The translations under genes and the position numbers were made by a program. A stretch of DNA of 36,955 nt, taken from positions 1 through 36,955 of the IMG/VR virus record IMGVR_UViG_3300014160_000348; one strand, written 5' to 3'. The notes beneath the pieces are model-generated. The model searched no databases. It saw nothing but the letters and a program-made list of their open reading frames with translations, and was not told the DNA's origin. The DNA comes from a virus (lineage: Duplodnaviria > Caudoviricetes). How positions within the stretch are numbered: the stretch's first letter is position 1; each line of letters opens with the position of its first letter. Of this stretch, positions 8,165 through 35,995 are shown one piece after another.

Positions 8165-9403
8165 TTATCCGGGGTTAGGGGCTAAAGGCTTCCAACCAAG
8201 GTTTGCGGCGGCTCCCCCCACGCCAATGAGCGAGGACAGGCCAGTCATCCACGGGTTAGCCTGGCTTGCCTGGTAGTTGCTCTGGCTCAGCCAGTCTTGC
8301 ATGGCCGGCCCTTGCGCCTGCATCGCGTCGCTCGGCATCGTCGGCAGGGGGGCTCCGGTCTTTACCGGAGTCGGTCCGCTCTGCGCGCCGCTCAGGCTTG
8401 AAAACTCGCTTTCGGGGGTCTTCCCATTCACCTCCGCGCTCAGGTTGGCAAGGTTCTGCTGCTCTCGCCGGTAGGAGATATCCTCCGGAGAGGATCCGCT
8501 GGCGAGCAGGCCGGTCGCCGACTGGGCGGCGTTGGCCTGGCGCTGCTCGCCCGCAAAGCCGGTCGTGAGAGGTTGCGCGAACGTGTCCGTCCCGTTGGTC
8601 GGCCCGCTGCCGCGATCGCCCAGCGCCGATGACACAGCCGCATCAAGTCGGGCTCGGTCCATGGCTGTGAGGCTGTCGTTATTGGCCGCGTTGAGTGTGT
8701 CCTGGACCTGAGAATTGAGCATATCCGCCACTGGCTCATTGAGCGGGCGGTTAATCTGCTCCTGGATAAGATTGGACTCCTCACCACGCGCGGCCACGCT
8801 CTGCGGATCGGCTTGCTGCTCTTCGCTCAGCGCCTGGGCGATAAACTGCGGGTCATACTTTTGAGAAAGCGCAAGCTGGTTGAGGGCATTCTGGGTGGCA
8901 ATCTTCCCCTGCACATCGGCGGTACCGTAGCCTGAGAAATTGGCCACCGCCTGGCTGGCCGGCACAACCTGCCCCTTCGAATTGAGATAGACCGTATTTC
9001 CGGACGCCGGGATGGCCGCAAGCTGCGCCTGCAAAGAGGCAAGCTGCGCCTGGTCGCCCGCCAACTGCCGCTGCCCGTAATTGGCCTCCTGGCCGCCACT
9101 CGATCCCCCCTTCGCTCCAGCGATCCGCTGCTGCAACGTCGCAATCTGCTGGTTTAACTTGTTCCGCTCCTGTATGGCCGTGTCGCTCTGCGTGTAGCCG
9201 TAGTTGAGAGCCGATCCACCTTCCTCGGATGCGGCCTGCAGCGCGCGCTGTTCGGGCAGGATTGAGGCCTCGAAGTCGGATAACTGCTTCGACGAAGACC
9301 CCAGGTTAGGCTCATTGGGCTGTCCAACGCCGGCAGCGGACATGCCAACACTCGTTGCTGTGAGTGCGAGCCCCGCCGAAACTCCGATAATTGCCATGCT
9401 CAT
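8165..9403 (-). CDS. Putative ejection protein, paralog of 9858-10877
   Basis: Gly/Ala hydrophobic N-terminus, Q/A/N-rich. Shares SPEDxxYRR..QQ, EFxSLSGAQ and QANPWxTGLSSL with 9858-10877. Confidence 0.65.
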   Translation of the reverse strand: MSMAIIGVSAGLALTATSVGMSAAGVGQPNEPNLGSSSKQLSDFEASILPEQRALQAASEEGGSALNYGYTQSDTAIQERNKLNQQIATLQQRIAGAKGGSSGGQEANYGQRQLAGDQAQLASLQAQLAAIPASGNTVYLNSKGQVVPASQAVANFSGYGTADVQGKIATQNALNQLALSQKYDPQFIAQALSEEQQADPQSVAARGEESNLIQEQINRPLNEPVADMLNSQVQDTLNAANNDSLTAMDRARLDAAVSSALGDRGSGPTNGTDTFAQPLTTGFAGEQRQANAAQSATGLLASGSSPEDISYRREQQNLANLSAEVNGKTPESEFSSLSGAQSGPTPVKTGAPLPTMPSDAMQAQGPAMQDWLSQSNYQASQANPWMTGLSSLIGVGGAAANLGWKPLAPNPG

Positions 9404-9861
9404 ACCCGTGCCTCCTGTGGTAGCTGCTTGAGAAAACTGAACATTTCCGGGGACAACTGCGGCGCGTTGCTCACGTCATGGGCCTCTGTAAGCTCGGCAA
9501 CGATCCTGTCCGGGTCCGTACCCGGCGGCCAGTCGCCCGGGTGAAACGTCGTCCAGACCGTATCCTCGAACATGAACAAGATCCGCCGCGTGCCGGGAGT
9601 CGTGATCCCGATGTGCCCGGACCGGACGTGCTGCACGCCGTTGGCCTCGTCCCAGACCAAGCAATGACCTTCAGTGACGACGAAGGGATGTGTAGTCTTG
9701 TGGATTCGGCTGATGACGAGCGCCCCTTTTGGCATGAGAATAGTTCGAGCGTAGAGCCCTGGCGTAAAGCGGTGCGTCAGAGGCATCTCAAGCTGAGGAA
9801 GCTTGCCCAGAGCCTTCTCGAGGGCGTCAACCTTCACAGTTGGAGCGACGATAGCTTTCAC
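9400..9861 (-). CDS. Cupin-fold protein
   Basis: HRFTPGLYARTILMPKG...IHKTTH...WTTFH fits a cupin beta-barrel with His ligands. 4-nt overlaps with both neighbours. Confidence 0.65.
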   Translation of the reverse strand: MKAIVAPTVKVDALEKALGKLPQLEMPLTHRFTPGLYARTILMPKGALVISRIHKTTHPFVVTEGHCLVWDEANGVQHVRSGHIGITTPGTRRILFMFEDTVWTTFHPGDWPPGTDPDRIVAELTEAHDVSNAPQLSPEMFSFLKQLPQEARV

Positions 9862-10877
9862 GGTTCAGCCCCCATGTCCATCGTCCCGCCCACATTCACC
9901 ATTGTCGCCCCAGGGACGCTGGTTGTGCTCCCTGAGTTGCCATTCATAAAGCTCGTCCCTGAGGCCGCGCCAAACGGTTGCCAGCCCATTGCGCCCGCAA
10001 CGCCGGCCATTCCGGTCAAGCTGGAAAGCCCAGTGGTCCAAGGATTTGCCTGGGACTTTGCCCAGTTCACCTGGCCGCTGTAGATGTTGGCCGCGTTCTG
10101 CTCACCCATCAGCGGCGCGCCAGTGTTTACCGTCGGGCTCGTAACCTGCCCCGGGTTAAATGGCGCTGCGCCATTCTGCGCCCCGCTCAGGCTGGCAAAC
10201 TCCGCCTCGGGGGATTGCCCATTGATGACATTGCCAAGGTTGGAAAGGCTCTGCTGCACTCGCCGATAGGTCACATCCTCGGGCGAGACGCCACTTTGCA
10301 GGAAGCTCATGGCTTGGTTCTGCCGCTGCTTCTGCATCTGGTCGCCGGCGTTGACCAATGCGGACGCCTCCTGGCTAGCTGGAGCATTCCCCAAAAAGAT
10401 CCCGTTGGCCAACTGCTGCCCACGCACGCCCTGCTGTACGGCTTCGGTCTCGCTTCCCGGGCCGGTAGTAAGGTTGCTGCCCTGGCTGAGCAGGTTGGTG
10501 ATCTGCTGCTGCGTGTCCGCCGCCATTGGCCGGTTTGGCGCGGCCTGAGCGTCGGACAGCACCTTGCTGAACAACTGCTGGCGCGCGGCATAACCAGCGG
10601 GGTCGGACTGCTGCAAGTCCGCGAGGCGCTGTTGGATATAGGCCGGGTCGGTGCTCTTCTGGAGGTCCAGAAGCGTTTGGGCCATCTGGTCGGAGATCTT
10701 ACCATTGGCATCGGCGTTGCCCAGGCCGGTGAAGTTGTAAGTCTTTCCACCGATCGTCGCGTTGCCGCCCATCTGGGCAAGGGCATTGATCTGGCTCTCA
10801 AACGGAAAGTTGGAGAGGTCGGCCTTTGCGCCAGCCAGGGAAGCCTGGTTTGGATCAGGAATGTTTGGTCCGCCCAT
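9858..10877 (-). CDS. Putative ejection protein
   Basis: MGGPNIPDP start, Q/N/A-rich, Gly-rich hydrophobic C-terminal segment. Paralog of 8165-9403. Confidence 0.65.
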   Translation of the reverse strand: MGGPNIPDPNQASLAGAKADLSNFPFESQINALAQMGGNATIGGKTYNFTGLGNADANGKISDQMAQTLLDLQKSTDPAYIQQRLADLQQSDPAGYAARQQLFSKVLSDAQAAPNRPMAADTQQQITNLLSQGSNLTTGPGSETEAVQQGVRGQQLANGIFLGNAPASQEASALVNAGDQMQKQRQNQAMSFLQSGVSPEDVTYRRVQQSLSNLGNVINGQSPEAEFASLSGAQNGAAPFNPGQVTSPTVNTGAPLMGEQNAANIYSGQVNWAKSQANPWTTGLSSLTGMAGVAGAMGWQPFGAASGTSFMNGNSGSTTSVPGATMVNVGGTMDMGAEP

Positions 10878-11331
10878 AGGTAAAGCGCTGTAGAGTTGGC
10901 CAGCTTATCTCGGTCAGCCTCGGTGCCCCGTCCCGAACACGGTAGGTGAACAGTTTTTTCCGAGGCGATTCCGGCCAGTGCGCCATTACCTGCTCGACTA
11001 TCGAGGAAATGAAATGCCGCTTTCCAACAACTTCCGCAATGAAAATCGCATCACCGCCGGCGAGCGGCTTGCCCCAGAAAAACACCGGCTCTCTGCGCTC
11101 GGCGTGTCCCCGCAAATCCGCTTCGTCCGCCCACCGCACAAACGCCACTGCCTGGGGCTCTCCCTTTCTGCCAAACACCCCAAAGACGCAATCCGCCAAC
11201 AAATGCCAGGCCACATATCGGAACACCTTGGCAGCCGTCCAGCCGGGGAAACACCGCTGCCCGCGGCGCAGTAGGCAAAACGCGGCCACCTGGGCTACCA
11301 GCTTGGCGGTCTCCTTATTGATCGCAATCAT
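10855..11331 (-). CDS. Acyltransferase-like protein (GNAT/HlyC-TAAT-like fold)
   Basis: Pattern W...GEPQAVAFVRW...GDAIFIAEVVG...WP...R resembles toxin-activating acyltransferases. Lies between nozzle and ejection genes, like T7 gp13. Confidence 0.45.
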   Translation of the reverse strand: MIAINKETAKLVAQVAAFCLLRRGQRCFPGWTAAKVFRYVAWHLLADCVFGVFGRKGEPQAVAFVRWADEADLRGHAERREPVFFWGKPLAGGDAIFIAEVVGKRHFISSIVEQVMAHWPESPRKKLFTYRVRDGAPRLTEISWPTLQRFTYGRTKHS

Positions 11332-11879
11332 CTGAACCTCCGAACAAAGCGCGCCATGCCTACCTCAAGCGGCGACATCCCATAGCCCCTCGCTTCCGCC
11401 AGGGCTCTAGCCCCGCTCCACCCCTGCGCGCGAACCCTGTAACACGCGACAATCGTCCCCGTCCGGTCGCACCCAAACTGGCAGTGAACAAACACCGGCC
11501 CGGGTGACCGCTGGATCTCCCGCAGAATCTCGTCCACCTGGTCGCCCGTCGGCGCGCCAAACCCCGCGAGCGGCGCAGCCACGTACTCGATCCCCGCCTC
11601 CCGGGCCCAGTCGGCCTCAGCCGGCAGCGCGTCGGCCCTCAAATTAATAACCTTGACCACCCCGAGCGCCGCCAGCGCCTGGTACCCGACCTGATTCGGC
11701 TGCGCCCCCCGGTAAACCCGCGCGGTCACCCGGTCAAAATTAGCAATCCCGAACACCGGCGGAAACCCACGGCGCGTGGCACACCCGCACAGCACAACCC
11801 CGAGCGCGAGACAAAGCGCGACGCCCAGCCTCGCGATTCCGGACAACTCATGGCACTCCCGCGCATTCATGTCACTCAT
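11328..11879 (-). CDS. Cys-dependent (PTP/DSP family) phosphatase, probable lipoprotein
   Basis: NFDRV..VYRGAQP, VINLR and active-site HCQFGCDRTG (Cx5R). Hydrophobic LGVALCLALGVVLCG-C lipobox-like segment. Start moved to ATG 11879 (or 11870) to remove the overlap with the upstream gene. Confidence 0.85.
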   Translation of the reverse strand: MSDMNARECHELSGIARLGVALCLALGVVLCGCATRRGFPPVFGIANFDRVTARVYRGAQPNQVGYQALAALGVVKVINLRADALPAEADWAREAGIEYVAAPLAGFGAPTGDQVDEILREIQRSPGPVFVHCQFGCDRTGTIVACYRVRAQGWSGARALAEARGYGMSPLEVGMARFVRRFR

Positions 11880-11890
11880 GGGCACTGTCC

Positions 11891-13525
11891 TTACCCGTCC
11901 AAAGCATTCACAAACGCCGTGACCGTCACATTCCGGAGCTTGATCCACCCCGACGTCGTGGCGATCTGCAGGTAGAGCTCCTGGAACTTCGGCAGCGACC
12001 GCAAGCTGTTCTGCACCTTCACAGGCTTCACGCTGGCCAGTTGGAACGGCAGCCGGCCCACGCCGAGCTTGTCCCCAGACACAGAAAAAGCAGCGTTAAA
12101 GGATGCGGTCTGTGCCAAGTCCATGACCGCTGTGACTGTTGCCGCCGCGTTGCCGGCCGTAAAGCGCAGGGTGCAGTTGTAGGCTGTCTTGGTGTTGGCG
12201 GGCTGGCCGAACTGAAACGACCGCGTCCAAATCGTGCTGGGAATATTCTGGCCGTTGTCCAGGTAGGTTGCTGGGTTGCTGGTGTCTGCGGCATCCTTCC
12301 AGATGTTCACGTAGCCGATCGAGTCCCCAAAGGCCAACTGCACCACACCCCCAAACCTTGGCGAGGCGAACCTCGTCGGCGTCCAGCCCGTCCAGCACCC
12401 GAGCCACTTGGCGAGGCGCGTGTTATAGACCAGCACAGCGTTATTGACCGTGCTGGAGTCCAGGGGGACCGCGAACAGGACAAACTCCTTGTAAGTGGTT
12501 GCCGCGATGCTCTGCCAGTAAGCAGGGTTAATCCGGTTGATATACTGCTGCACCGGCTGGCTGATGGGCGACGTCAACTGCCACTGTCCGACGGCGGATT
12601 GCATCCGTTGGATCGTCCGGACGCCGTCTTGGGCCATAAAAAATACGTCGTTTTGGAAGCCCGTCGCTGCCCATTTGCCAACACAGCCGACGGAAAACCC
12701 CACCGAGTCAACCACGGTCGATGCTGAAAAGTTTGTCGGCTCCGCCGTCGGGTCCGCGTTGACGAGCCACACCGAGTTTGCCTTGAACACAGCCAGCATT
12801 GATCCTTGCATTGGGCAAATGGCTGTCACAGGATCCCCATCACCCGCTCCCACTCGGAAACTACGAGTGGTCCCATTCCACTGCCCGCTCCCAAAAGCCA
12901 GCCGATTGCTCACCCAAACCGCGTCTCGCTCCTTGCCGGCCACAGAACCCGCAAAGCCCGCCGCGAACATGCGCCCAGTGGCAAAACGCAGTATCTTTGC
13001 GCCGACAGGCGGATCAACGTTCGGATCGTTGGAGCAAGCCGTGAGCGTGAGGTTTTGGTCCAGGATGGACATGGCATTCTCGCCGTCCGAAAGCAGCAGC
13101 GAGTCAATGCCTTGCTCCATCTCAAGCGCGTTTCCTGGCGTGTTGGTGGTAAACCCGGTAGCGGTCCAGGGCTGCCCCGGCCCCTGGCAGGACTTCAACG
13201 CGCCGTTAATGGCTGCCAGCAGAAACTTGTTGGCCGGCGTGTCGAAGTAGGTCAGGGAGTTAATGGCGCCCGTTCCGAGCGGTGTCGCGCCCGTAGCCGC
13301 CGCCATCGGGTCAGCGCCAGGCCGGGTCCATGCCTCGTAGTTGTCCCTTACGATGATGTTGACCAACTTTTGGCACTGGTCCGGATCCAACAGCGTTGAT
13401 CGGCGGTAATCGTCCTCGCCGCCGGCAAAACTCTCCATGCGCTCGAACTGTATATCGTCGTCGAGGCCGTCTATCCCGTAGAACGGCCTCCCGTAAAGTT
13501 CAAGCGCTGATGAGTCTATGGCCAT
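11891..13525 (-). CDS. Tail nozzle/DNA stabilisation protein (tail tubular B/P22 gp10-like)
   Basis: Beta-propeller-like repeats (GDGDPVTAI, AVFKANSVWLV, GCVG, DVFFMAQDGVR, VLVYN..W). Follows the adaptor gene. Confidence 0.8.
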   Translation of the reverse strand: MAIDSSALELYGRPFYGIDGLDDDIQFERMESFAGGEDDYRRSTLLDPDQCQKLVNIIVRDNYEAWTRPGADPMAAATGATPLGTGAINSLTYFDTPANKFLLAAINGALKSCQGPGQPWTATGFTTNTPGNALEMEQGIDSLLLSDGENAMSILDQNLTLTACSNDPNVDPPVGAKILRFATGRMFAAGFAGSVAGKERDAVWVSNRLAFGSGQWNGTTRSFRVGAGDGDPVTAICPMQGSMLAVFKANSVWLVNADPTAEPTNFSASTVVDSVGFSVGCVGKWAATGFQNDVFFMAQDGVRTIQRMQSAVGQWQLTSPISQPVQQYINRINPAYWQSIAATTYKEFVLFAVPLDSSTVNNAVLVYNTRLAKWLGCWTGWTPTRFASPRFGGVVQLAFGDSIGYVNIWKDAADTSNPATYLDNGQNIPSTIWTRSFQFGQPANTKTAYNCTLRFTAGNAAATVTAVMDLAQTASFNAAFSVSGDKLGVGRLPFQLASVKPVKVQNSLRSLPKFQELYLQIATTSGWIKLRNVTVTAFVNALDG

Positions 13526-13527
13526 GG

Positions 13528-15006
13528 TTACAGGTGCGGCGCGTAGATATCCCAGTTAGGCTCGCCAAAGCCGCTATCCGGCTCGATATGGTTGCGGCTG
13601 GACTGGTGAAACGCCTCCAAGGCAGTCAACTGGGCGAGCAACGCAGCCCCTTCCTGCATGGCCTGCTGTGCCTTTCCGTGCTGCCGTGAGCGCATCAGCA
13701 TGTCGGCTCGCGCGAATGCCATCAGACACGGCTCCGAGTTGTTGATGGGGGAGGCGTCAAAGTCGCCAAGGATGGGGCAGGCAATCTTGCCCAAAACCCG
13801 AAGATTTACCGATGTGTTTGGAAGCGACGTAAGCCGTATCCGCTGATGCTGCGCCAGTTGGCCGGCAGCCGGCGGCATGATGATCGGGGAAAGCACTATC
13901 TGCCAGTACGCCGTGTCGGGTGGTGAGTCATAGTACTGGAACACCGTCACAGTGGGCGATGGCGTCTCGCCCGAGACAGCGTCCCAGATCTGGTTTTCCA
14001 GCCCCGTTGGAGATAGCGCCGGTATTCCCTGGCTGGTGCTTGGATCAGTCATGTAATCTGGGGCGCCACTGGGGTCGACGAGTTGCCACATAGGAGGGCT
14101 GCTGTGTCCGGGCAGATTGAGTCCCGGTGCATAGCTAAACCTCCAGCCACTTGCCGCCTTAAAAGTGCCGTCGGACTGGGGCATATAGATGCCATCCGCA
14201 GCGCCGGTCCCGGTCACGTTTACCGCCGTAATCGTCTTTACAAGCTGGTAAAACGCGCCGTCTCCAGGGTTCTGCACCACGCTCCCTACCGCCAGACCGG
14301 TGTCGTTGACTCCCGCCGCGTACTCTGGAGCAGTCGGAGAGGACGAATAGGAGAAGTTGACCTGCCCCGCGGTTGCCGGCTTGGAGACTGTGTAAACCAG
14401 CATCGCCGGACCGACGAGTGTGCCAGGTGACACCGTGGATGGGTTTGGCGTGACCGTATTGATGGTCACTCCATCCACTGAAAACCGCACTGAGAGTGCG
14501 GCGGTGCTGTCCCCGGCAAGGAAGGCCATCGCGTAAAAGTTTGCCAGCTCGGGTAGTTCCATCACCGCTGGCCGCAACACCTGGAACTCTGTCGGGTCGC
14601 CCTGCATGTCGAGATGGTCTATCACATCCCGGTAATAACTCTCCAGGCTGGCGACACTTATCTGGTGTTTGTCGGTCCTGACCGCCAGCACGGTGTTGAT
14701 AACCGTCGGCAGCAAGAGTGACCCGCGCGCGGGAATCCAATAGGTATCGCCCAGGTTGCAAGTCCCGTCCGTGTTGATCGTGAAAGTGGCTTCGACCAAC
14801 GAGGCGCGCCACAACTGGCTATTCCAGATCATCTCCAGCCGTCGTTGGAGGAACATTTTTGCGGCCGTCACGTCGTCCGTGTCGGACATGCCGGTCTGTT
14901 CACAGATGTGGTTGGCAAGGTCGGTGAGTGTCATTGGGCTAGTGGGTTGTGCGGCCTTAGCGCTGGACAAGGACAGGAGCGCGGCCAGGATGATTGTTCG
15001 AAGCAT
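13528..15006 (-). CDS. Head-tail adaptor (tail tubular A-like) with N-terminal signal-like peptide and inserted domains
   Basis: MTLTDLANHI helix at residue 25, IWNSQLW, and C-terminal helices (CLMAFARADML...). Preceded by MLRTIILAALLSLSSAKA. Confidence 0.65.
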   Translation of the reverse strand: MLRTIILAALLSLSSAKAAQPTSPMTLTDLANHICEQTGMSDTDDVTAAKMFLQRRLEMIWNSQLWRASLVEATFTINTDGTCNLGDTYWIPARGSLLLPTVINTVLAVRTDKHQISVASLESYYRDVIDHLDMQGDPTEFQVLRPAVMELPELANFYAMAFLAGDSTAALSVRFSVDGVTINTVTPNPSTVSPGTLVGPAMLVYTVSKPATAGQVNFSYSSSPTAPEYAAGVNDTGLAVGSVVQNPGDGAFYQLVKTITAVNVTGTGAADGIYMPQSDGTFKAASGWRFSYAPGLNLPGHSSPPMWQLVDPSGAPDYMTDPSTSQGIPALSPTGLENQIWDAVSGETPSPTVTVFQYYDSPPDTAYWQIVLSPIIMPPAAGQLAQHQRIRLTSLPNTSVNLRVLGKIACPILGDFDASPINNSEPCLMAFARADMLMRSRQHGKAQQAMQEGAALLAQLTALEAFHQSSRNHIEPDSGFGEPNWDIYAPHL

Positions 15007-15009
15007 AGG

Positions 15010-16665
15010 TTATTGTGGCGAGACAAGGACATGAATCAAGGGTACTTGGCGTGCCGTTCCACCGCCGTCGTTGACGGCGATGCGGAAACGGTTCGTGGTC
15101 ACGATATTGTCAAAGGCGAGGTTTACGACCGGCGGAGCCCCGCCGCTGGTGAACTCAATCGCGCTGGACGACACGTAATAGAAGGGTGTAGGGGATGGTG
15201 TGCGGAAATACACATCGTAACACCCAGTCCGGATCGTCGTGTTCGTCACCAACTGGATCACATCCGCGTTCAGGCTTGTGAGCGTGCTCATCCAATACAT
15301 CACTGGCGGATGCGTGCTCGAAGGCGTCCCCAACGAAACCGCGTTGCTCTGCCCCAGGGCCGTGGTGTAGTTGGTGTAGATCCTCCAAGAGTTCATGTCC
15401 CCTCCCGCCGACCGCGCATAATAGAGCACGTTGCTGCCGATCTGTGGGCTGGACGGAAGCTGCGTCGTGTTCCCGTAAGCAAAGAGGAACGACACCGGGA
15501 ACGGATTTGTGAAGCCGTAGCCCGTATTGGTGATCGAGTTCGCCGCCAGATTCACGCTGGCTACCGTAAATAAGTTCGGAACTCCCGAGAACTGCACCCG
15601 CGCCTGGCTGTAGAGCGGTAGCGCGTTGCGGTTTGTCATATACGCGTATAGCGCCGCCAAGTTCATGGTGGTGTTGGTGCCTTGCGCCGATGCCCACACA
15701 GGCACCGTGTCCCCGTCGCTGAGCGTCGGAGCCGCGTTGGTCGGATTCGCCGCGTTGGTAAGTGTCAAGCTCACAATCGGGAAATTCGAGTAATACCCCC
15801 AGGCGTTGGTCCACGTGTTGGTGTTGTAGAGCGTCCAGGGCAGGAACTCCTGTGCAAACTCGAACGCCAGCAAGAGGTTTGTTCCCAGGTCCGCCGCGAT
15901 AGCCGACTCCAGGTTTGTCAGCGGCACTTGCCACGGCACGCCGTTAGTATCCCAAAACAGCGTCATCGGCTGGTTATTGGTCTGAGGTCCTGAAAACTGC
16001 CCAACCCACTTGCCCAGAACATATTGATTCGTGCCGCCGGCGTTGTTGGTCGAAGCAAACGTGAGGCACTGAACAGGCACATTAGAAGCCAGGGCATAGA
16101 CCAGGTTGGAGCCCTGCACCCTTCCCAGCACTCCGTTGGTCGGGTCAAAAAACAGAAAAGACCCGTACTGTGGGAGCGTCCGGTAAGGCACGTTGAGGTA
16201 GATGTTGGTGTTGCCGTAAATGGCTGTCTGGCAATCGATGCGGCGAAACATGGTCTGCGTCCCCGTCGGGTCGAGCACAAGGAAGTAATAGCCCGGGTTG
16301 AGGGATGGCACGGCCTGCTGGTCGAGGTAGAAGCCAACACCGATCGTTGCCGTATCGATCAGGTTGTGCAGGTCCGAGGCGTAGATCTGCTGCCCGTCGA
16401 GAAGGGTCGTGTTGCGGATGACTTCGCCAGCGCCGGCGCTGATTGCCAGCAGGCAGGTCAGGAGGGCCACTGCCGTAGCTGGCCAAATCTTCTTGAGCCG
16501 GCTTGCCTTCATGTCCAACTTGCGCTCAAGCTGGCTGGTTCCCATTTGCTGCTCCATCTCCCGAAGCGCGCGCGGCACCGCCCGATCCGCGTCTGTTGGA
16601 TCACCCGCGTTGGTGTTGACCCCCGGCGCCCTGCCGGCCTCCAAAATCTCAGCGATCTTGCTCAT
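15010..16665 (-). CDS. Tail fibre-like protein with signal peptide; probable start at ATG 16512
   Basis: MKASRLKK + hydrophobic core + AGA, then DGQQIYASDLHNLIDTATI (fibre attachment-like). C-terminal ARVQFSG...TGCYDVYF fibre-tip-like module. Confidence 0.65.
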   Translation of the reverse strand: MSKIAEILEAGRAPGVNTNAGDPTDADRAVPRALREMEQQMGTSQLERKLDMKASRLKKIWPATAVALLTCLLAISAGAGEVIRNTTLLDGQQIYASDLHNLIDTATIGVGFYLDQQAVPSLNPGYYFLVLDPTGTQTMFRRIDCQTAIYGNTNIYLNVPYRTLPQYGSFLFFDPTNGVLGRVQGSNLVYALASNVPVQCLTFASTNNAGGTNQYVLGKWVGQFSGPQTNNQPMTLFWDTNGVPWQVPLTNLESAIAADLGTNLLLAFEFAQEFLPWTLYNTNTWTNAWGYYSNFPIVSLTLTNAANPTNAAPTLSDGDTVPVWASAQGTNTTMNLAALYAYMTNRNALPLYSQARVQFSGVPNLFTVASVNLAANSITNTGYGFTNPFPVSFLFAYGNTTQLPSSPQIGSNVLYYARSAGGDMNSWRIYTNYTTALGQSNAVSLGTPSSTHPPVMYWMSTLTSLNADVIQLVTNTTIRTGCYDVYFRTPSPTPFYYVSSSAIEFTSGGAPPVVNLAFDNIVTTNRFRIAVNDGGGTARQVPLIHVLVSPQ

Positions 16666-16707
16666 GCGTTCTTCAGATGTTCAGTGCTCAATGAACAACG
16701 GCCCCAT

Positions 16708-17556
16708 TCAAAACCCCGCGCGTAAACCCAGGAACAAAGAGTCCCTCCACCCCGAGTAAGCCCCGAGATTGGACCACTCCGTCCTTGCATACCCCGTGCT
16801 CAGCTTGAGAGTCGTACCCCCCACGTCGAACTGGCACAAGTCCAGATTGAACCCCGCGCCATAGATCGCCCCGATACTCCCATTCGCGCTTCCCGCCGAC
16901 GAAATAGGCGAGCACGCCCCCGCAATCCCAAATGGTGTGACAGTAAAGTTCGACGCAAAGGCGCTGGTCATCCCCAAATACGTAAGTGGCCGCAAGGACT
17001 GCTTAATGGTGACATTCCCGTTCACCATATTGAATGACCCGAGGTAATCCACCCCCATCCCAATGCCGACGTTCTGAGACACGTCAAAAACAAACAGCGC
17101 GCCGCCGCCAAACTGGCGCCCCTTGGGCGCATTCTCCGCGTAGGTTGCATACGGAGAGACGCTGTAATTAGAAGCCGTCTTGAGCCCGTTCCAAATGGCT
17201 TTGCCGACCAATCCCCAAGACAGTGGCGCATTGGTCGCTGGGGCCAACGCGGCTCCGCTGTTAGTTGCGCTGCCCGGACTCGCTGCGCTATTTGTTTGCG
17301 CAGAGGCGCTCGCCCCCAGAGCCAGCAGTAAGAGGATTACAGGCACCGTGCCTGTCTTGAGCTTTTGAAAGTCCGCCGCGATGGCTTCGCGCTTCTCCCA
17401 AAGTGAATGACCAATGGCTACCAGGACGCCTATCGCGCCGATGGCTTGTGAGAGTTGAGAGCCCGAGAGAATGCCTTGCGTGACGAGCCAGGCGCCAGCC
17501 GCGTTGACTGCGTGGCGGATGATGACTTTGGCGAGTTGAGTTTTTAACCAGTTCAT
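16708..17556 (-). CDS. Holin-like domain fused to a signal peptide and an outer-membrane beta-barrel
   Basis: IIRHAVNAAGAWLVTQG...IGAIGVLVAIGHSLWEK (2 TM), then VILLLLALGASASA|Q, about 8 amphipathic strands and terminal LFLGLRAGF. Start at ATG 17556 or 17595. Confidence 0.65.
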   Translation of the reverse strand: MNWLKTQLAKVIIRHAVNAAGAWLVTQGILSGSQLSQAIGAIGVLVAIGHSLWEKREAIAADFQKLKTGTVPVILLLLALGASASAQTNSAASPGSATNSGAALAPATNAPLSWGLVGKAIWNGLKTASNYSVSPYATYAENAPKGRQFGGGALFVFDVSQNVGIGMGVDYLGSFNMVNGNVTIKQSLRPLTYLGMTSAFASNFTVTPFGIAGACSPISSAGSANGSIGAIYGAGFNLDLCQFDVGGTTLKLSTGYARTEWSNLGAYSGWRDSLFLGLRAGF

Positions 17557-17594
17557 GTGTTTTGTGCGTTGTTGTTGAGACGGTCGATCAGACA

Positions 17595-17885
17595 TCAGTG
17601 TTTGTTGAAGGCCCCGGAGAAGAACGCAGCCGCGGTGCTGACAAGGAACGAGACTATACCCGCCAACAGCACGATCGCGGCCTTGCCTCCTTTGGCGCGT
17701 TCCCGAGCATCCTCCAGGCTGCGGACGCGCGCTTCCGTCGAGGATCGATACTCCGCCCAGGAACGCTCAGCCTTCTCCTGGTTTCCCTCAATGGTCTTTA
17801 GCTGCTCCTCAATCCTGGCAAGCCTGCTCAGGCAGTCGGGGAAGGCCGGGCCGCATTCGTTGGTTGGTCGGTGCTCGTTGTTCAT
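17595..17885 (-). CDS. Small coiled-coil protein with C-terminal TM helix (holin/XhlA-like)
   Basis: RLARIEEQLKTIE...RVRSLE coiled coil followed by AIVLLAGIVSFLVSTAAAFF. Confidence 0.55.
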   Translation of the reverse strand: MNNEHRPTNECGPAFPDCLSRLARIEEQLKTIEGNQEKAERSWAEYRSSTEARVRSLEDARERAKGGKAAIVLLAGIVSFLVSTAAAFFSGAFNKH

Positions 17886-19114
17886 TGGGCGGTCAGTATG
17901 GGAACGTTGTTGCTCATCCAGACGCGCGTGAGGCCAAGGCCGTTGGAGTTCACGATCTTGACGTCGCCCGGTCCCATGCCGTTAGTGGCGGCAGCCAGGC
18001 TCCAGGTATTTGAGTGGTAAAGAAGTCCCCCATCAGCCGCGAGCGGTACCGAAAACCTGGACTCCACGTAGGACGGCCCATGCATCTGAAAAAACTGGCA
18101 CTGAAGCGTCGGCTGGATGGGCACAGCAAAGGTCACGATCCCCGCATTGGTTAAGATCGTAAAATTGGTTGTGGCCTGCCAGGTAATCGGCCCGCTGAGG
18201 TTGGTGCAGGTCTCCATGGCCCACCCGGGCACGAGGTTTGTTGCGGGGGTGTTGATCAGGATGTTGGTCCCGCTGGTTCCCCCAAAAGCCTCAGGGATGC
18301 CTGGAACTGTGGCCCAAAGATTCAGCACGTTCGTGCCGTGGTTGTAGAAGGTGACTGTCTCATTGGTCTGCAACTGCGATTGGAGCAGCCAGCCGCCAGC
18401 CATGTTCACCGGCGGCGCCAGAACGTGGATATAGCTCAGTAGGTCGGACTGATTGACCAGTGACGATCCCTGCATCATCAGGCTCTGGCCATCGAAGGAG
18501 ATGACGTTGCCGTAAAGCTCCGGATGGTCCAGCCCATAGATCGTAACTGAGCCGATCCCAACCGTGGTGTCGCCCACAACAGAGAGCCAGATATTTGACC
18601 AGCAGACAAAGCCGTTGGTGAGCGGAAACCAGCCGTTGGTGCCAGTGTAGCTTCCCCACAGGCTCTCAGTGAGGGTGATATTGGGAAGCATTGGCCCGGC
18701 AGAGACCGATGGTGCTCCAATCCGCCACATGTAAAGCTGCGGGACCACGCCAAAGAAGTTGGAGCCTGACATCGTGAACGCCGAGTTATTGGTCAACAAT
18801 ATCTCGTGCGACGAAAGCACCAGATTGGTTTGCATGGCGCTGACGTACTGCTGCGCCCGCACCCACCCCACCACGCCATTGCTGCACACAACCAGATCCC
18901 CAGCCCCCAATCCCCCGCTACTACTGAGGCTGGTAAGGTTGGTGCCGTTCAGGACGATCCCGTTCACATACAGCGTGCGGAACGGGAAATCGGAGCGCCC
19001 CAGGTCGGCCCATCCTGGGCTCACAGGCCGGAAGATGGGATCCCGCAACACGTTCTCATTTCCGCTGGCCGCCAGAGCCAGAAGGCAAACACATATGGCA
19101 AGAAAATGCTTCAC
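17882..19114 (-). CDS. Secreted tail fibre/spike-like protein
   Basis: Signal peptide MKHFLAICVCLLALAASG. Fibre-like P.....DLG....F..LY motif, beta-rich, and an ETCTNL....W...FFQM module. Confidence 0.55.
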   Translation of the reverse strand: MKHFLAICVCLLALAASGNENVLRDPIFRPVSPGWADLGRSDFPFRTLYVNGIVLNGTNLTSLSSSGGLGAGDLVVCSNGVVGWVRAQQYVSAMQTNLVLSSHEILLTNNSAFTMSGSNFFGVVPQLYMWRIGAPSVSAGPMLPNITLTESLWGSYTGTNGWFPLTNGFVCWSNIWLSVVGDTTVGIGSVTIYGLDHPELYGNVISFDGQSLMMQGSSLVNQSDLLSYIHVLAPPVNMAGGWLLQSQLQTNETVTFYNHGTNVLNLWATVPGIPEAFGGTSGTNILINTPATNLVPGWAMETCTNLSGPITWQATTNFTILTNAGIVTFAVPIQPTLQCQFFQMHGPSYVESRFSVPLAADGGLLYHSNTWSLAAATNGMGPGDVKIVNSNGLGLTRVWMSNNVPILTAQ

Positions 19115-19120
19115 GGGTTG

Positions 19121-19423
19121 TCAATGCCCCAACAGAGCCACAACAGACACCGTCCCACTGACCAGCCCCACGCCCATCGCGGAAGAGGCCGGCGTAATTG
19201 TCAGGTTGTCCAGGTCCAGCCCTTCCGGAAACTCGAAGGAGAAATAGCCTGGGGCAATTGCGGGGCAAAAGAGCAGGCCCCCCAGCGGAGTGCCCTCGTT
19301 AATCCAGAGGAAACAGGCCGAGCCCGCATTGTAGCCATACACGCCACACAGCTTGACGGGTGCCGTAGAGACCGTCAGAGCCGCTGTGAGCGGCGTCATG
19401 TTGCCAACAGGTTGTGTGAACAT
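19121..19423 (-). CDS. Small beta-rich virion protein (decoration-like), paralog of 19428-19745
   Basis: STAPVKLCGVYGYN...FPEGLDLDNLTI; downstream of the capsid gene. Confidence 0.55.
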   Translation of the reverse strand: MFTQPVGNMTPLTAALTVSTAPVKLCGVYGYNAGSACFLWINEGTPLGGLLFCPAIAPGYFSFEFPEGLDLDNLTITPASSAMGVGLVSGTVSVVALLGH

Positions 19424-19427
19424 GTCG

Positions 19428-19745
19428 TTAGAGGGCGAGCATCGCGTTGAACAGGCATGAGGCGCTATCCAGGGTCTTTGTCGCCTGCGTGGTTGACGTG
19501 CACAGGGTCAGCGCGTCCAAGTCCATGCCCTGTGAGAAGGTGGCGAAGTAAGAGCCGCCCGCAGCCACTGCGATTGATAAGAGCGGCACTGCCCCGTCCG
19601 CTGGCAACGTTGGGGATGGGTGGACCTGGATATACCTGGTCGCAGCGGCGTTGTTGGCCCCGAACACGCCAAAGAGCTTCACCGGGCTCGTGGATATCAC
19701 GAGCGAGGAGAGTTGCTGGTTGCTCCCATTCAATCGCGTTTTCAT
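19428..19745 (-). CDS. Small beta-rich virion protein (decoration-like)
   Basis: STSPVKLFGVFGAN...FSQGMDLDALTL; downstream of the capsid gene. Confidence 0.55.
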   Translation of the reverse strand: MKTRLNGSNQQLSSLVISTSPVKLFGVFGANNAAATRYIQVHPSPTLPADGAVPLLSIAVAAGGSYFATFSQGMDLDALTLCTSTTQATKTLDSASCLFNAMLAL

Positions 19746-20323: not shown

Positions 20324-21361
20324 TTACACGAAGGTCGACTGTGACCGGAATAACACGAAGCGCGGCTGCTCGCTCGCGCCGTTGGTGATGAGAGGCTTGG
20401 CGCCGTAATAGGCTTTCCAGCCGATTTGCACCCACTGGCCCAACGGGTTTGAATGGTCGGGCTTGTTGATGATGATGAGTTGCGGGGCGTAGGGAGAACC
20501 GCCCGCCTTGGTATTGTCCAGCCCGGGCACGCCGAAAGCGGCATCGCCGAGGTAGATGGAGGTAAAGATCTTGCCGCCGGCAGCGTAGGTGCCGTAGGCC
20601 GTCTCCTGGAATGGGTTGGTGGCCTCGATAAAGACCGTACCGTCCAGCATGACAGCCTGGTCTTTATACAGCGGCTCGCCCTGGTACTGGAACGCCAGCG
20701 TCAAGGTCGTGTCTTTGCGCAGGTCGTGGACGATCTGTGGCGGGACGATGGCTACATACTTGCCTCCAACCTTTGGCACGCGGGCGGACTTCAACTGCGT
20801 GATGCACTTGATGTTTTCCGCCCGGGTCATGTTGGATGCCGATGCACCCAAACCGGTCAGCGTCGTGAAGTCGGTCGAGGAAGTGCCGGAATTGGTTGTG
20901 CCGGCAAACCGCTCAAAGTAACCAGTGTAAGTGCTGTTCGAGTTGGCGAGTCCGGCGACCAGCGCGTTGCGGATCACGGTATCCAGGTCCAGGGCCGCGT
21001 CAGCGCCCATTGTCTGGGTGTAGAGCTTCACCGTGTCCAGCAGGTCAGTCGCCAGGACAATGTCGGTGATCTTGGCGAGCGCTCCGCGCTGTCCAAGTGG
21101 CACATCCACATAGCCCACGGCGACTTCCGTCAGGGTTGTGGGCACCGTTCCTTCCGTGAGGGCGCCCGCGCCAACCGTGTTGGCAAGGCGCGGGCGGAAG
21201 AACCGGACGGTTGGAGTAGAGCCGGCAGCTGGGTATTTGCCCTGGAGACCGAATCTTGCAAGCTGGAGGTTAAACTTGAGAGCCTCCAGCAGCTTCGGAT
21301 TATAGTACGTTTGGACCCGTGACGCGAAGTCAGCCGGGTTCGAAAGTGAAATAGTAGCCAT
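20324..21361 (-). CDS. Major capsid protein (N4-gp56-like, HK97 fold)
   Basis: TVRFFR, LTEGTVP, YVAIVPPQIVHDL, LGDAAFG, NPLGQ..IGWKAYYG; follows the scaffold gene. Confidence 0.9.
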   Translation of the reverse strand: MATISLSNPADFASRVQTYYNPKLLEALKFNLQLARFGLQGKYPAAGSTPTVRFFRPRLANTVGAGALTEGTVPTTLTEVAVGYVDVPLGQRGALAKITDIVLATDLLDTVKLYTQTMGADAALDLDTVIRNALVAGLANSNSTYTGYFERFAGTTNSGTSSTDFTTLTGLGASASNMTRAENIKCITQLKSARVPKVGGKYVAIVPPQIVHDLRKDTTLTLAFQYQGEPLYKDQAVMLDGTVFIEATNPFQETAYGTYAAGGKIFTSIYLGDAAFGVPGLDNTKAGGSPYAPQLIIINKPDHSNPLGQWVQIGWKAYYGAKPLITNGASEQPRFVLFRSQSTFV

Positions 21362-32132: not shown

Positions 32133-33002
32133 TCATGATCGGTTTAGAATTTCAGCAATCCAGTTCGCCATAGGGGGGGGGAATGCGTTCCCTGCGGCAT
32201 AAGCCTCTTCAAGGTTGGTCGCATCCAGTCCGCAGCGAAGCCCATGTACCTCAACCTCTCGGGCCCGCTCAACCATCGAACCCCATCCGTCTTCCTCAGC
32301 AACGAAAAGTTCACTGCCCAAATTGATCCGGCTGGAGCATCGGTTAAACTTGTTTGGAGCCGTAAGAGTATAGCCAGCCCAAGAATCCGCTTGTTTTGCG
32401 ATCCAGTTCGAGCCAGGCGATGCAGGTAGCGATTCCACTGGCCTGGCGTCAGATAGAAACTCGGAGCTTGGGTATCGTCCAAGACCCGCGACCAGGAGAA
32501 GGCGGCGGCGCTTTTGGGGGATTCCGAAATATTGAGAGTCAAGCACTCGCCAGAATCCCACATACCCGCATTTGGATAATTCTGCGATGACTGCCTGAAA
32601 GTCTCGGCAATCGTTGATATAGAGCAGGGCCGGCACGTTTTCAACGACCACCCAAGCGGGTTTAAGTGCGGCGACGCACGCCATGATTTCAAAGAAGAGT
32701 CCGCTGCGCTCGCCAGCAAGACCTCGTTTCGACTGGTCTCGCTTAGCCGTCGCCATGTTAGAAATGTCCTGGCAGGGGAAGCCGAAGGCGACGCAGCCAA
32801 CTGGGGACAAGGCAAATGAGCGCCAGTCGCGGAGATCACGGTGTTGCCGGGCCTGAGGAAAGAGATCGGCAAGGACAGTCCGGTTGACGTCGTCCAGTTC
32901 AATCTGCCAGGTTGTTTTCCATCCGGCTTCCTCGAAACCTTTGTCGAAGCCACCAATCCCAGCGCAGATTGTTCCGAGCGTTCTGTTGCTGGTCTCATTC
33001 AC
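32133..33002 (-). CDS. DNA cytosine-5 methyltransferase, alpha polypeptide (motifs I-VIII and X)
   Basis: CAGIGG, GFPCQD, ENVP, PQKRRR and GNAFPPP; motif IX is missing from this frame. Likely GTG start at 33002 after GGGGGAG (ATG 33047 is an alternative). Confidence 0.9.
   Translation of the reverse strand: MNETSNRTLGTICAGIGGFDKGFEEAGWKTTWQIELDDVNRTVLADLFPQARQHRDLRDWRSFALSPVGCVAFGFPCQDISNMATAKRDQSKRGLAGERSGLFFEIMACVAALKPAWVVVENVPALLYINDCRDFQAVIAELSKCGYVGFWRVLDSQYFGIPQKRRRLLLVAGLGRYPSSEFLSDARPVESLPASPGSNWIAKQADSWAGYTLTAPNKFNRCSSRINLGSELFVAEEDGWGSMVERAREVEVHGLRCGLDATNLEEAYAAGNAFPPPMANWIAEILNRS
32144..32998 (-). CDS. C5 methyltransferase beta polypeptide in an overlapping frame (motif IX)
   Basis: 284-codon nested same-strand ORF carrying VRWLSGPERLRYMGFAADW; true start uncertain. 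Confidence 0.75.
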   Translation of the reverse strand: MRPATERSEQSALGLVASTKVSRKPDGKQPGRLNWTTSTGLSLPISFLRPGNTVISATGAHLPCPQLAASPSASPARTFLTWRRLSETSRNEVLLASAADSSLKSWRASPHLNPLGWSLKTCRPCSISTIAETFRQSSQNYPNAGMWDSGECLTLNISESPKSAAAFSWSRVLDDTQAPSFYLTPGQWNRYLHRLARTGSQNKRILGLAILLRLQTSLTDAPAGSIWAVNFSLLRKTDGVRWLSGPERLRYMGFAADWMRPTLKRLMPQGTHSPPLWRTGLLKF

Positions 33003-33048
33003 TTCTCCCCCTTTCCATCCAACATGGCCTGATGCATCCAAGTCCATC

Positions 33049-35467: not shown

Positions 35468-35995
<528 letters not shown>

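Follow-up and report, generated by a model that had tools for sequence, protein, structure and literature searches.

In the textbook view, tailed phages are put together entirely in the cytoplasm, and the fibres of podoviruses are, to our knowledge, cytoplasmic proteins without a leader, in agreement with the leaderless homologs of the fibre described here. In the podoviruses SU10, T7 and KP32, the head-tail adaptor carries the dock for the fibre, according to passages of a structural report (PMC9509320). The present analysis concerns the tail fibre and neighbouring appendage genes of a single virus record of 36,955 bases (IMG/VR record IMGVR_UViG_3300014160_000348, hereafter the window), which represents an uncultured short-tailed wetland phage; its recognisable genes are all on the minus strand, to which all window coordinates below refer. 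Its tail module is the same as that of SU10, T7 and KP32 in adaptor fold, nozzle likeness and gene order (portal, scaffold, capsid, fibre, adaptor, nozzle and large late genes), but the fibres of the window family differ by carrying leaders and a host-type bias towards the dipeptide Thr-Asn. It is probable, in our assessment, that the core particle of this phage is cytoplasmic and that its fibres leave the cytoplasm by export, likely undergo modification at Thr-Asn and join the particle at lysis.

Virion proteins with export signals are known from filamentous phages. The M13 proteins pVIII and pIII carry Sec signal peptides that are cut by signal peptidase, and the whole particle is assembled at the membrane and extruded without lysis. 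The window phage shares with them virion proteins with leaders of the signal peptidase type (here predicted), but its head-tail particle, with portal and terminase, would be cytoplasmic, and the appendages alone are proposed to be exported. A second comparison is with the glycosylated mycobacteriophages, whose glycans are added by phage enzymes in the cytoplasm. A possible sugar coat on a tailed virion is common to both, whereas the route proposed here relies on an enzyme of the host envelope that would act on the fibres after export; family scans of the window recognised no glycosyltransferase. The mycobacteriophage glycans are found on capsid and tail tube (Freeman et al. 2023, as cited in PMC12619734). 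Finally, the Bdellovibrio MAT proteins are, according to passages of the report describing them, phage-like fibres with a signal peptide that fold outside the cytoplasm, and are cell-encoded adhesins with an N-terminal domain of their own (PMC10769870). The window fibre differs in being phage-encoded and in having a virion-type anchor; a survey of 301 genomes from the order of the likely host found this anchor in phage contexts only. Literature searches turned up neither exported fibres in a tailed phage nor a Thr-Asn motif, although a mention in a proteomics table could be missed by such searches. The individual parts of the locus are ordinary podovirus parts. New are the matched series of leader-bearing and leaderless fibres, the co-variation of Thr-Asn with the leader outside the anchor, and the repeated occurrence of precursors whose parts are linked by an internal signal.

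The gene order of the window is terminase-like gene, portal, scaffold, N4-like capsid, a variable block, adaptor, nozzle and large late genes; the latter, located 3' of the nozzle, probably encode ejection proteins, judged by position. Signal peptides were identified with a home-made heuristic rule and by eye, not with SignalP. The rule flagged four of 34 window translations: the fibre (from the Met at 16512), the adaptor, the protein encoded at 17882-19114 and an open reading frame (ORF) at 10855-11331, the last a probable false positive. An earlier note on this DNA had described five hydrophobic leaders (in these first three genes, at 16708-17556 and in a phosphatase gene) as one candidate envelope-routed assembly and egress system. 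All five leaders are present on the minus strand, and the heuristic scan confirmed that capsid, portal and nozzle have none. The five do not form a single system; the proposal is well founded for the fibre and 17882-19114, and not well founded for the adaptor, 16708-17556 and the phosphatase. The predicted routing of the former two to the envelope is well supported at the level of sequence by leader conservation, cleavage register and Thr-Asn bias. Contigs from four other sequencing runs, two of which may be the source of the window itself, are identical to the window across the fibre and adaptor leaders; an assembly error at the fibre fusion or the adaptor leader is not supported, as the contigs of other runs agree base for base.

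The fibre reading frame is open from 16665 (15010-16665) rather than from 16512, which makes the leader internal in the window phage. The frame starts with a small 62-residue protein (16480..16665) that is fused 5' of the leader and has homologous stand-alone genes in most relatives, often with a weak FmdB-like zinc-ribbon start. In the relative L002, the small stand-alone gene ends directly after a KIW motif equivalent to that of fibre residues 1–62. It is followed by an internal signal-like segment ending in Ala-Gly-Ala (16429..16479), and then by the mature tail fibre (15010..16428), with 472 residues and 19 Thr-Asn, which consists of an anchor, four hairpin-plus-helix repeats and a C-terminal beta domain. 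The anchor, comprising the first 60 mature residues (16249..16428), is free of Thr-Asn and is predicted to dock on the adaptor. The leaders of the fibre and of 17882-19114 show, by heuristic and inspection, a basic n-region, a hydrophobic core and small residues at positions -3 and -1. The last small residue of the fibre leader (the final Ala in the window) lines up with Met1 of leaderless fibres, so that cleavage of the former and loss of Met from the latter would produce the same mature start. Among homologs, the leader is kept in character and not in sequence, with the mature start in register.

Fusion of the small gene to the fibre was found in 15 of the 165 fibre homologs tested, all 15 of them leader-bearing. 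The conserved small gene (window 16480-16665, L003 8258-8539, L019 4328-4582), with a weak FmdB-like zinc ribbon and a helical end, lies 5' of the fibre in leader-bearing phages; it is also present in leaderless phages, unfused and at other positions. In L002 (7980-8070 and 9500-9800), L062 and L070, short repeats in or near the fibre leaders lengthen them while the frame is still open.

In the fibre model, which has a mean predicted local distance difference test (pLDDT) score of 72.7, the four hairpin-helix repeats are seen, and the C-terminal beta domain is modelled with confidence. A Foldseek search of a viral library with this model returned many tail fibres (best E 1e-7), as local matches with low TM-scores, and the anchor has no sequence match to any solved structure. 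The fibre gene directly precedes the adaptor gene, which the nozzle gene then adjoins. The anchor, the repeats and distal domain, and the gene position all fit a podovirus adaptor-docked tail fibre.

A full leader is present in 30 of 33 full-length fibre homologs; one of the others is cut within the leader and two lack the N-terminus. With an iterated anchor profile, 34 frames were found in the fetched loci, of which three are from the window phage, 19 others are leader-bearing (15 distinct), 11 begin with Met at the anchor and one is cut off. The leaderless anchor proteins sit at or near the same gene position as the fibre. Seven of eight scanned match PHROG tail fibre or spike families, one also an S74 chaperone, and all five from close loci match tail-fibre families. 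A search of 1.84 billion representatives with the anchor profile gave 1,573 matches. The best 150 of these include 98 with a clear leader, eight with a short or weaker leader, 39 that start within three residues of the anchor and five without an N-terminal anchor; the 39 leaderless proteins have their Met at the predicted cleavage point of the leader. No GenBank phage matched the leader-bearing fibres, and a cultured relative was not found; leader-bearing fibre genes will be mis-annotated as host secreted proteins. In the likely host order, the anchor occurs in only two of 301 genomes, both times beside an adaptor gene (one protein leader-bearing, one leaderless), and is therefore not a host domain.

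Homologous fibres with and without a leader provide an unusually clean natural experiment, in which Thr-Asn is gained or lost in step with the leader and is kept off the anchor. In the window, the fibre has 19 Thr-Asn where 5.0 are expected and 17882-19114 has 13 where 2.9 are expected, compared with 0 in the adaptor (1.7 expected), 2 in the nozzle (2.8) and 3 in the capsid (1.7). The median ratio of observed to expected Thr-Asn is 2.97 in the 98 leader-bearing fibres and 0.78 in 36 leaderless ones of at least 150 residues, three short leaderless rows having been dropped. Thr-Asn is the top dipeptide of leader-bearing fibres (3.0-fold, z 40). Within these proteins it is nearly absent from the first 60 mature residues, with 0.17 per 100 residues compared with 3.98 elsewhere. 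In an alignment of full-length near neighbours (mean identity 29% between and 34% within groups), ten Thr-Asn columns are kept in 116 of 219 cells of 23 leader-bearing fibres, but in 4 of 50 cells of five leaderless ones, which represent two lineages at most; all four cells are in one column. Other dipeptides of similar conservation are kept in 174 of 656 cells.

On this evidence, we lean towards Thr-Asn being a modification site, most likely for sugar. N-X-S/T sequons, whose enrichment would mark substrates of N-glycosylation of the PglB/AglB type, are not enriched (fibre 5, 8.2 expected; 17882-19114 8, 5.9 expected). It is possible, if somewhat doubtful, that export is real and that Thr-Asn is a structural or compositional habit, such as turn capping or adaptation to the periplasm, which would fit the explanation preferred here minus its modification step. 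Most Thr-Asn sites are in loops or at the ends of secondary structure elements of the fibre model, one column keeps Thr-Asn in leaderless fibres too, and searches of the host genomes found no modifying enzyme, all as expected of such a habit. The bias is, on the other hand, specific to the order of the two residues (Thr-Asn 3.0, Asn-Thr 0.95, Ser-Asn 1.26, Thr-Asp 0.9), is lost at homologous positions of leaderless fibres of the same architecture, and is common to unrelated phage and host proteins. Co-variation with Thr-Asn gives export a reason other than disulfides. Cysteine pairing as the reason for export was considered separately and rejected, with 0.47 Cys per 100 residues in leader-bearing and 0.51 in leaderless fibres, and even counts in 36% and 33%, respectively.

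Homologs are labelled Verrucomicrobiae or Limisphaerales and occur in three such metagenome-assembled genomes (MAGs), in one labelled Ca. Sulfotelmatobacter and in one further small contig. From these labels, the host is likely a subdivision-3 Verrucomicrobia lineage. Host DNA was sampled from three likely-host MAGs (L076-L095 and L106-L123), namely 400 kb of G001 (two stretches of which adjoin a prophage remnant), 251 kb of G003 and 40 kb of G002. In all three, no dipeptide is more enriched than Thr-Asn in the proteins that the heuristic classed as signal-bearing. More than one Thr-Asn per 100 residues is found in 11 of 47 signal-bearing and 7 of 164 other proteins of G001 (Fisher p 2e-4), and in 10 of 36 and 5 of 80, respectively, of G003 (p 0.003). 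Thr-Asn is thus a candidate lineage-wide modification motif that is independent of phages, in an abundant, barely studied lineage of soil and peat that has cultured members. As for the enzyme, PMT-like matches are present in all three host MAGs, but Escherichia coli and Bacillus match too; TMTC DUF1736 and PF11846 gave no match in the three MAGs, nor did the control searches for them.

Several observations weigh against the export and modification of the fibre. The ratio of 98 leader-bearing to 39 leaderless proteins is not a prevalence, as the profile seed comprised 16 leader-bearing and 8 leaderless rows, and a single lineage accounts, as near-copies, for many of the leaderless rows. Support in the anchor tree is weak, with six changes of which only one is forced by strong branches. 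The whole-fibre model has no Foldseek match in the PDB with E <0.001. In L131, from the same host order, the fibre is leaderless, and export is therefore not required there. Three leader-bearing fibres (P0088, P0136 and P0139) have little Thr-Asn, at 0.5–0.9 per 100 residues, and two counted as leaderless (P0195 and P0202, probably truncated calls) are rich in it. In the host, the per-protein comparison is not significant in the 40 kb of G002 (1 of 8 and 1 of 10), and the 'no signal' classes likewise have more Thr-Asn than expected (1.58, 1.43 and 1.72). Most of this latter enrichment comes from a few proteins with a secreted look, and the value for the G001 class falls to 0.88 only once its top seven proteins are removed post hoc. 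Residues 286–350 of 17882-19114 weakly resemble a host-protein module (best E 0.03). Enzyme-family searches of the host MAGs identified no modifying enzyme for Thr-Asn; STT3/PglB in particular was found in none of the three, which are incomplete, although the control searches did match.

The preferred reading can be set out as a series of steps. The core particle of portal, capsid and nozzle would be built in the cytoplasm, while the tail fibre and a second appendage protein would be sent through the inner membrane. Signal peptidase is predicted to cut the leader off the exported fibre, and a host envelope enzyme would likely modify the Thr-Asn sites of the exported proteins. Docking of the completed fibres on the adaptor would follow at lysis, once the holins have opened the inner membrane. 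In the window phage, the fibre is likely a two-part precursor, cleavage of which would leave the 62-residue protein tethered in the membrane. Export and cleavage, trimer formation, virion docking and the timing at lysis are all inferred. If fibres have to pass the inner membrane, they would be expected to join the particle late, in a step linked to lysis; work on P22 and T4 established that fibres can join finished particles as the last step, and a literature search on late fibre joining returned nothing. More broadly, we tentatively suggest a large tailed-phage family with two-compartment assembly, in which the DNA-filled core would be cytoplasmic while fibres and decoration proteins would be coated with host sugars in the periplasm by a general, hitherto undescribed glycosylation system of subdivision-3 Verrucomicrobia that reads Thr-Asn. 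If true, the family would disclose a new way of assembly and, at the same time, the motif targeted by a new modification system of bacteria. Recombinant fibres produced in the cytoplasm may miss a needed modification.

The same leaders might instead mark fibre-derived proteins of the lysogen surface or decoys, which act in lysogenic conversion or receptor masking and are never on the virion. The close relatives include a complete 42-kb phage that has terminal repeats and encodes an integrase. Relatives are temperate, given the integrases of G004 and G005 and the provirus G006, the region also encodes a predicted outer-membrane barrel and a lipobox phosphatase, and 17882-19114 is weakly like a host-protein module. 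Moreover, bacteria do export phage-like trimeric fibres with signal peptides, as passages on the Bdellovibrio MAT proteins describe (PMC10769870). We consider such a role unlikely: the window has no leaderless fibre as a replacement; the anchor, the position before the adaptor and the dock domain of the adaptor are all retained; and the N-terminus after cleavage would be that of virion-type leaderless fibres, with Thr-Asn kept off the anchor. Each gene could also feed two pools, a cytoplasmic one (from failed export or an internal start) that is built into the virion and an exported one with a side role. The adaptor, in which a conserved Met lies behind a sporadic leader, would be the likely case. 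For the fibre, Met is absent at the anchor start of leader-bearing proteins, which thus have no ready cytoplasmic form; an uncleaved leader of 17 to more than 100 residues would precede the anchor, and the pervasive gain of Thr-Asn points to selection on the exported form. We regard two pools as quite unlikely.

The adaptor (13528..15006) is a podovirus head-tail adaptor with a fibre-dock domain and a large insertion, as identified by structural comparison. The 18 top rows of the structural search are all phage portal-tail chains, including the SU10 and KP32 adaptors, with Z scores of 10.4–13.6 and root-mean-square deviations of 3.1–4.4 Å over 148–184 residues, while unrelated rows have Z <5. 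Its fold consists of a helix bundle and a fibre-dock beta domain, as in gp11 of T7 and SU10. By Foldseek alone, E values exceed 0.001, and no sequence match to solved structures was found.

The 24-residue adaptor leader (14935..15006) precedes a Met (residue 25, at 14934) that is conserved in all homologs with an intact start. Of 73 adaptor loci checked, two are from the window phage and two have no anchored start; an in-frame leader is absent from all of the remaining 69, many of which are redundant. Among 41 other adaptor proteins, a leader was called in three, two of them of the lipoprotein type, and gene callers can miss adaptor leaders, as they did for the window's own. The export of the adaptor that the earlier note had considered is therefore contradicted, as its homologs begin past the hydrophobic segment. 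The adaptor was accordingly rejected as a conserved exported part: the leader is sporadic and lies before a conserved Met, and adaptors are poor in Thr-Asn. As most adaptors lack a leader, assembly does not need adaptor export, and Met 14934 is the likely start of the adaptor that enters the particle. Leaders before the conserved Met, of both standard and lipoprotein type, are seen in P0004, P0008, P0016 and the window (14935-15006); a scan with P0016 for DNA around a leader-bearing adaptor returned nothing, and P0004, P0008 and P0016 are without DNA context.

A stronger proposal, that the tail including the adaptor is completed at or beyond the inner membrane with a dedicated envelope exit route, appears very unlikely indeed. 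The adaptor leader does start at the first ATG past the fibre stop, with a gap of 3 nucleotides, which is like the spacing of adaptor starts in relatives (-4 to +10 nucleotides from the fibre stop in 12 of 20 checked), and the four leader-bearing adaptors do not group, indicating at least two origins. A large ribosome-free outer compartment has also been described in four verrucomicrobial strains, including Ellin514 (PMC2647929). Most adaptors are leaderless, however, and the leader-bearing ones have 3 Thr-Asn where 8.1 are expected. Two holin-like genes are present, and the egress machine or whole-particle envelope assembly of the earlier note is left unsupported, with capsid, portal, scaffold, nozzle and ejection proteins all leaderless and poor in Thr-Asn.

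The second fibre-like or appendage protein (17882..19114; 410 residues, 13 Thr-Asn) has a GTG start and a predicted 18-residue leader, and its export is likely. A leader is present in 18 of 22 homologs, all rich in Thr-Asn, and absent in four, at least two of which look truncated. Conservation of the leader holds for this protein and for the fibre and not for the adaptor. A virion location is less sure than for the fibre. The fold search gave no usable Atlas match, a homolog has no sequence match to solved structures, and weak matches to tail-protein PHROGs were found in three homologs only. Next to it are two small paralogous proteins (19121..19745), decoration-like by position only, which are leaderless and free of Thr-Asn in the window. 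Their counterparts in L003, L059 and L070 are leader-bearing with 1–3 Thr-Asn, such that the same rule of leader and Thr-Asn is obeyed, in small numbers.

A leader-bearing protein of about 200 residues, encoded directly 3' of the capsid gene (L003 3852-4439, L009 1525-2163, L010 440-1069, L065 1-696), is present in many relatives and not in the window, and is a candidate exported capsid decoration protein. In the leader-bearing relative L017 (5816-7476), the appendage block includes a family-2 glycosyltransferase and a lipase-like gene. Leader-bearing appendage genes of L008 (4301-6367), L009 (3143-5182) and L010 (4300-5226) encode GDSL esterase or LamG lectin domains, as found in receptor-binding proteins.

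The gene at 16708..17556 encodes a holin, an internal signal and a putative outer-membrane beta-barrel that ends in Phe. Its N-terminus is a holin of the Pam3-gp28 type (PF23987, E 5e-10, 39.7 bits with a cut-off of 27). The Atlas neighbours of the barrel are all barrels, with low recognition, and OmpA matches with E 3e-4, far under the cut-off. This protein, taken for a virion protein in the earlier note, is an appendage by none of the tests, and looks like a holin with a barrel-like domain. As a predicted barrel among late genes, it resembles the lambda Lom-like outer-membrane proteins and unimolecular spanins, but it differs in being fused behind a holin via an internal signal; as it has no lipoprotein anchor, it is not a spanin of the T1 gp11 type by sequence. 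In L058 and L059, a gene of its own encodes the barrel, complete with a leader, and relatives carry either a separate secreted barrel gene or a holin fused to a lipoprotein. Holin or holin-like N-termini joined via an internal signal to a passenger, either a predicted outer-membrane barrel or a lipoprotein, are seen in the window (16708-17556) and in L002 (6540-7538), L003 (7324-7866), L011 (7506-8030) and L070 (6780-7511). These fusions are likely two-part precursors that would be split by signal peptidase. The neighbouring gene (17595..17885) encodes a holin-like protein with a single membrane span (phrog_689 holin, E 1.6e-4).

The remaining features are less directly related to the fibre. 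The dual-specificity phosphatase (11328..11948), whose start is uncertain, is an accessory gene: none of the fetched loci has a counterpart at this position, and the proteins that match it in G005 and three MAGs carry no leader. The lipobox-like motif noted earlier is present, but a clean basic n-region is absent, the heuristic made no call, and the gene appears as an accessory insertion. The nozzle or head-closure protein (11891..13525) is leaderless with Thr-Asn at background, and the major capsid protein (20324..21361), N4-gp56-like by family matches, also has no leader. In the window, no Rfam matches and no informative repeats were found, and promoter and terminator counts are at chance level. 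No endolysin was recognised among 39 ORFs of the window, which is less than a whole genome (the best candidate is a 153-residue ORF at 9400-9861, with a weak PHROG row of E 0.014), or among the 29 ORFs scanned, not every ORF, of the complete phage G005; the leaderless relative L068 encodes an M15 peptidase. Two long overlapping frames on the same strand of the window, 32133-33047 and 32144-32998, both match DNA methyltransferase families (PF00145; phrog_16143), and a low-complexity repeat of Ala, Asp and Tyr (35501-35734) lies within an Imm5-like / DUF6931 gene.

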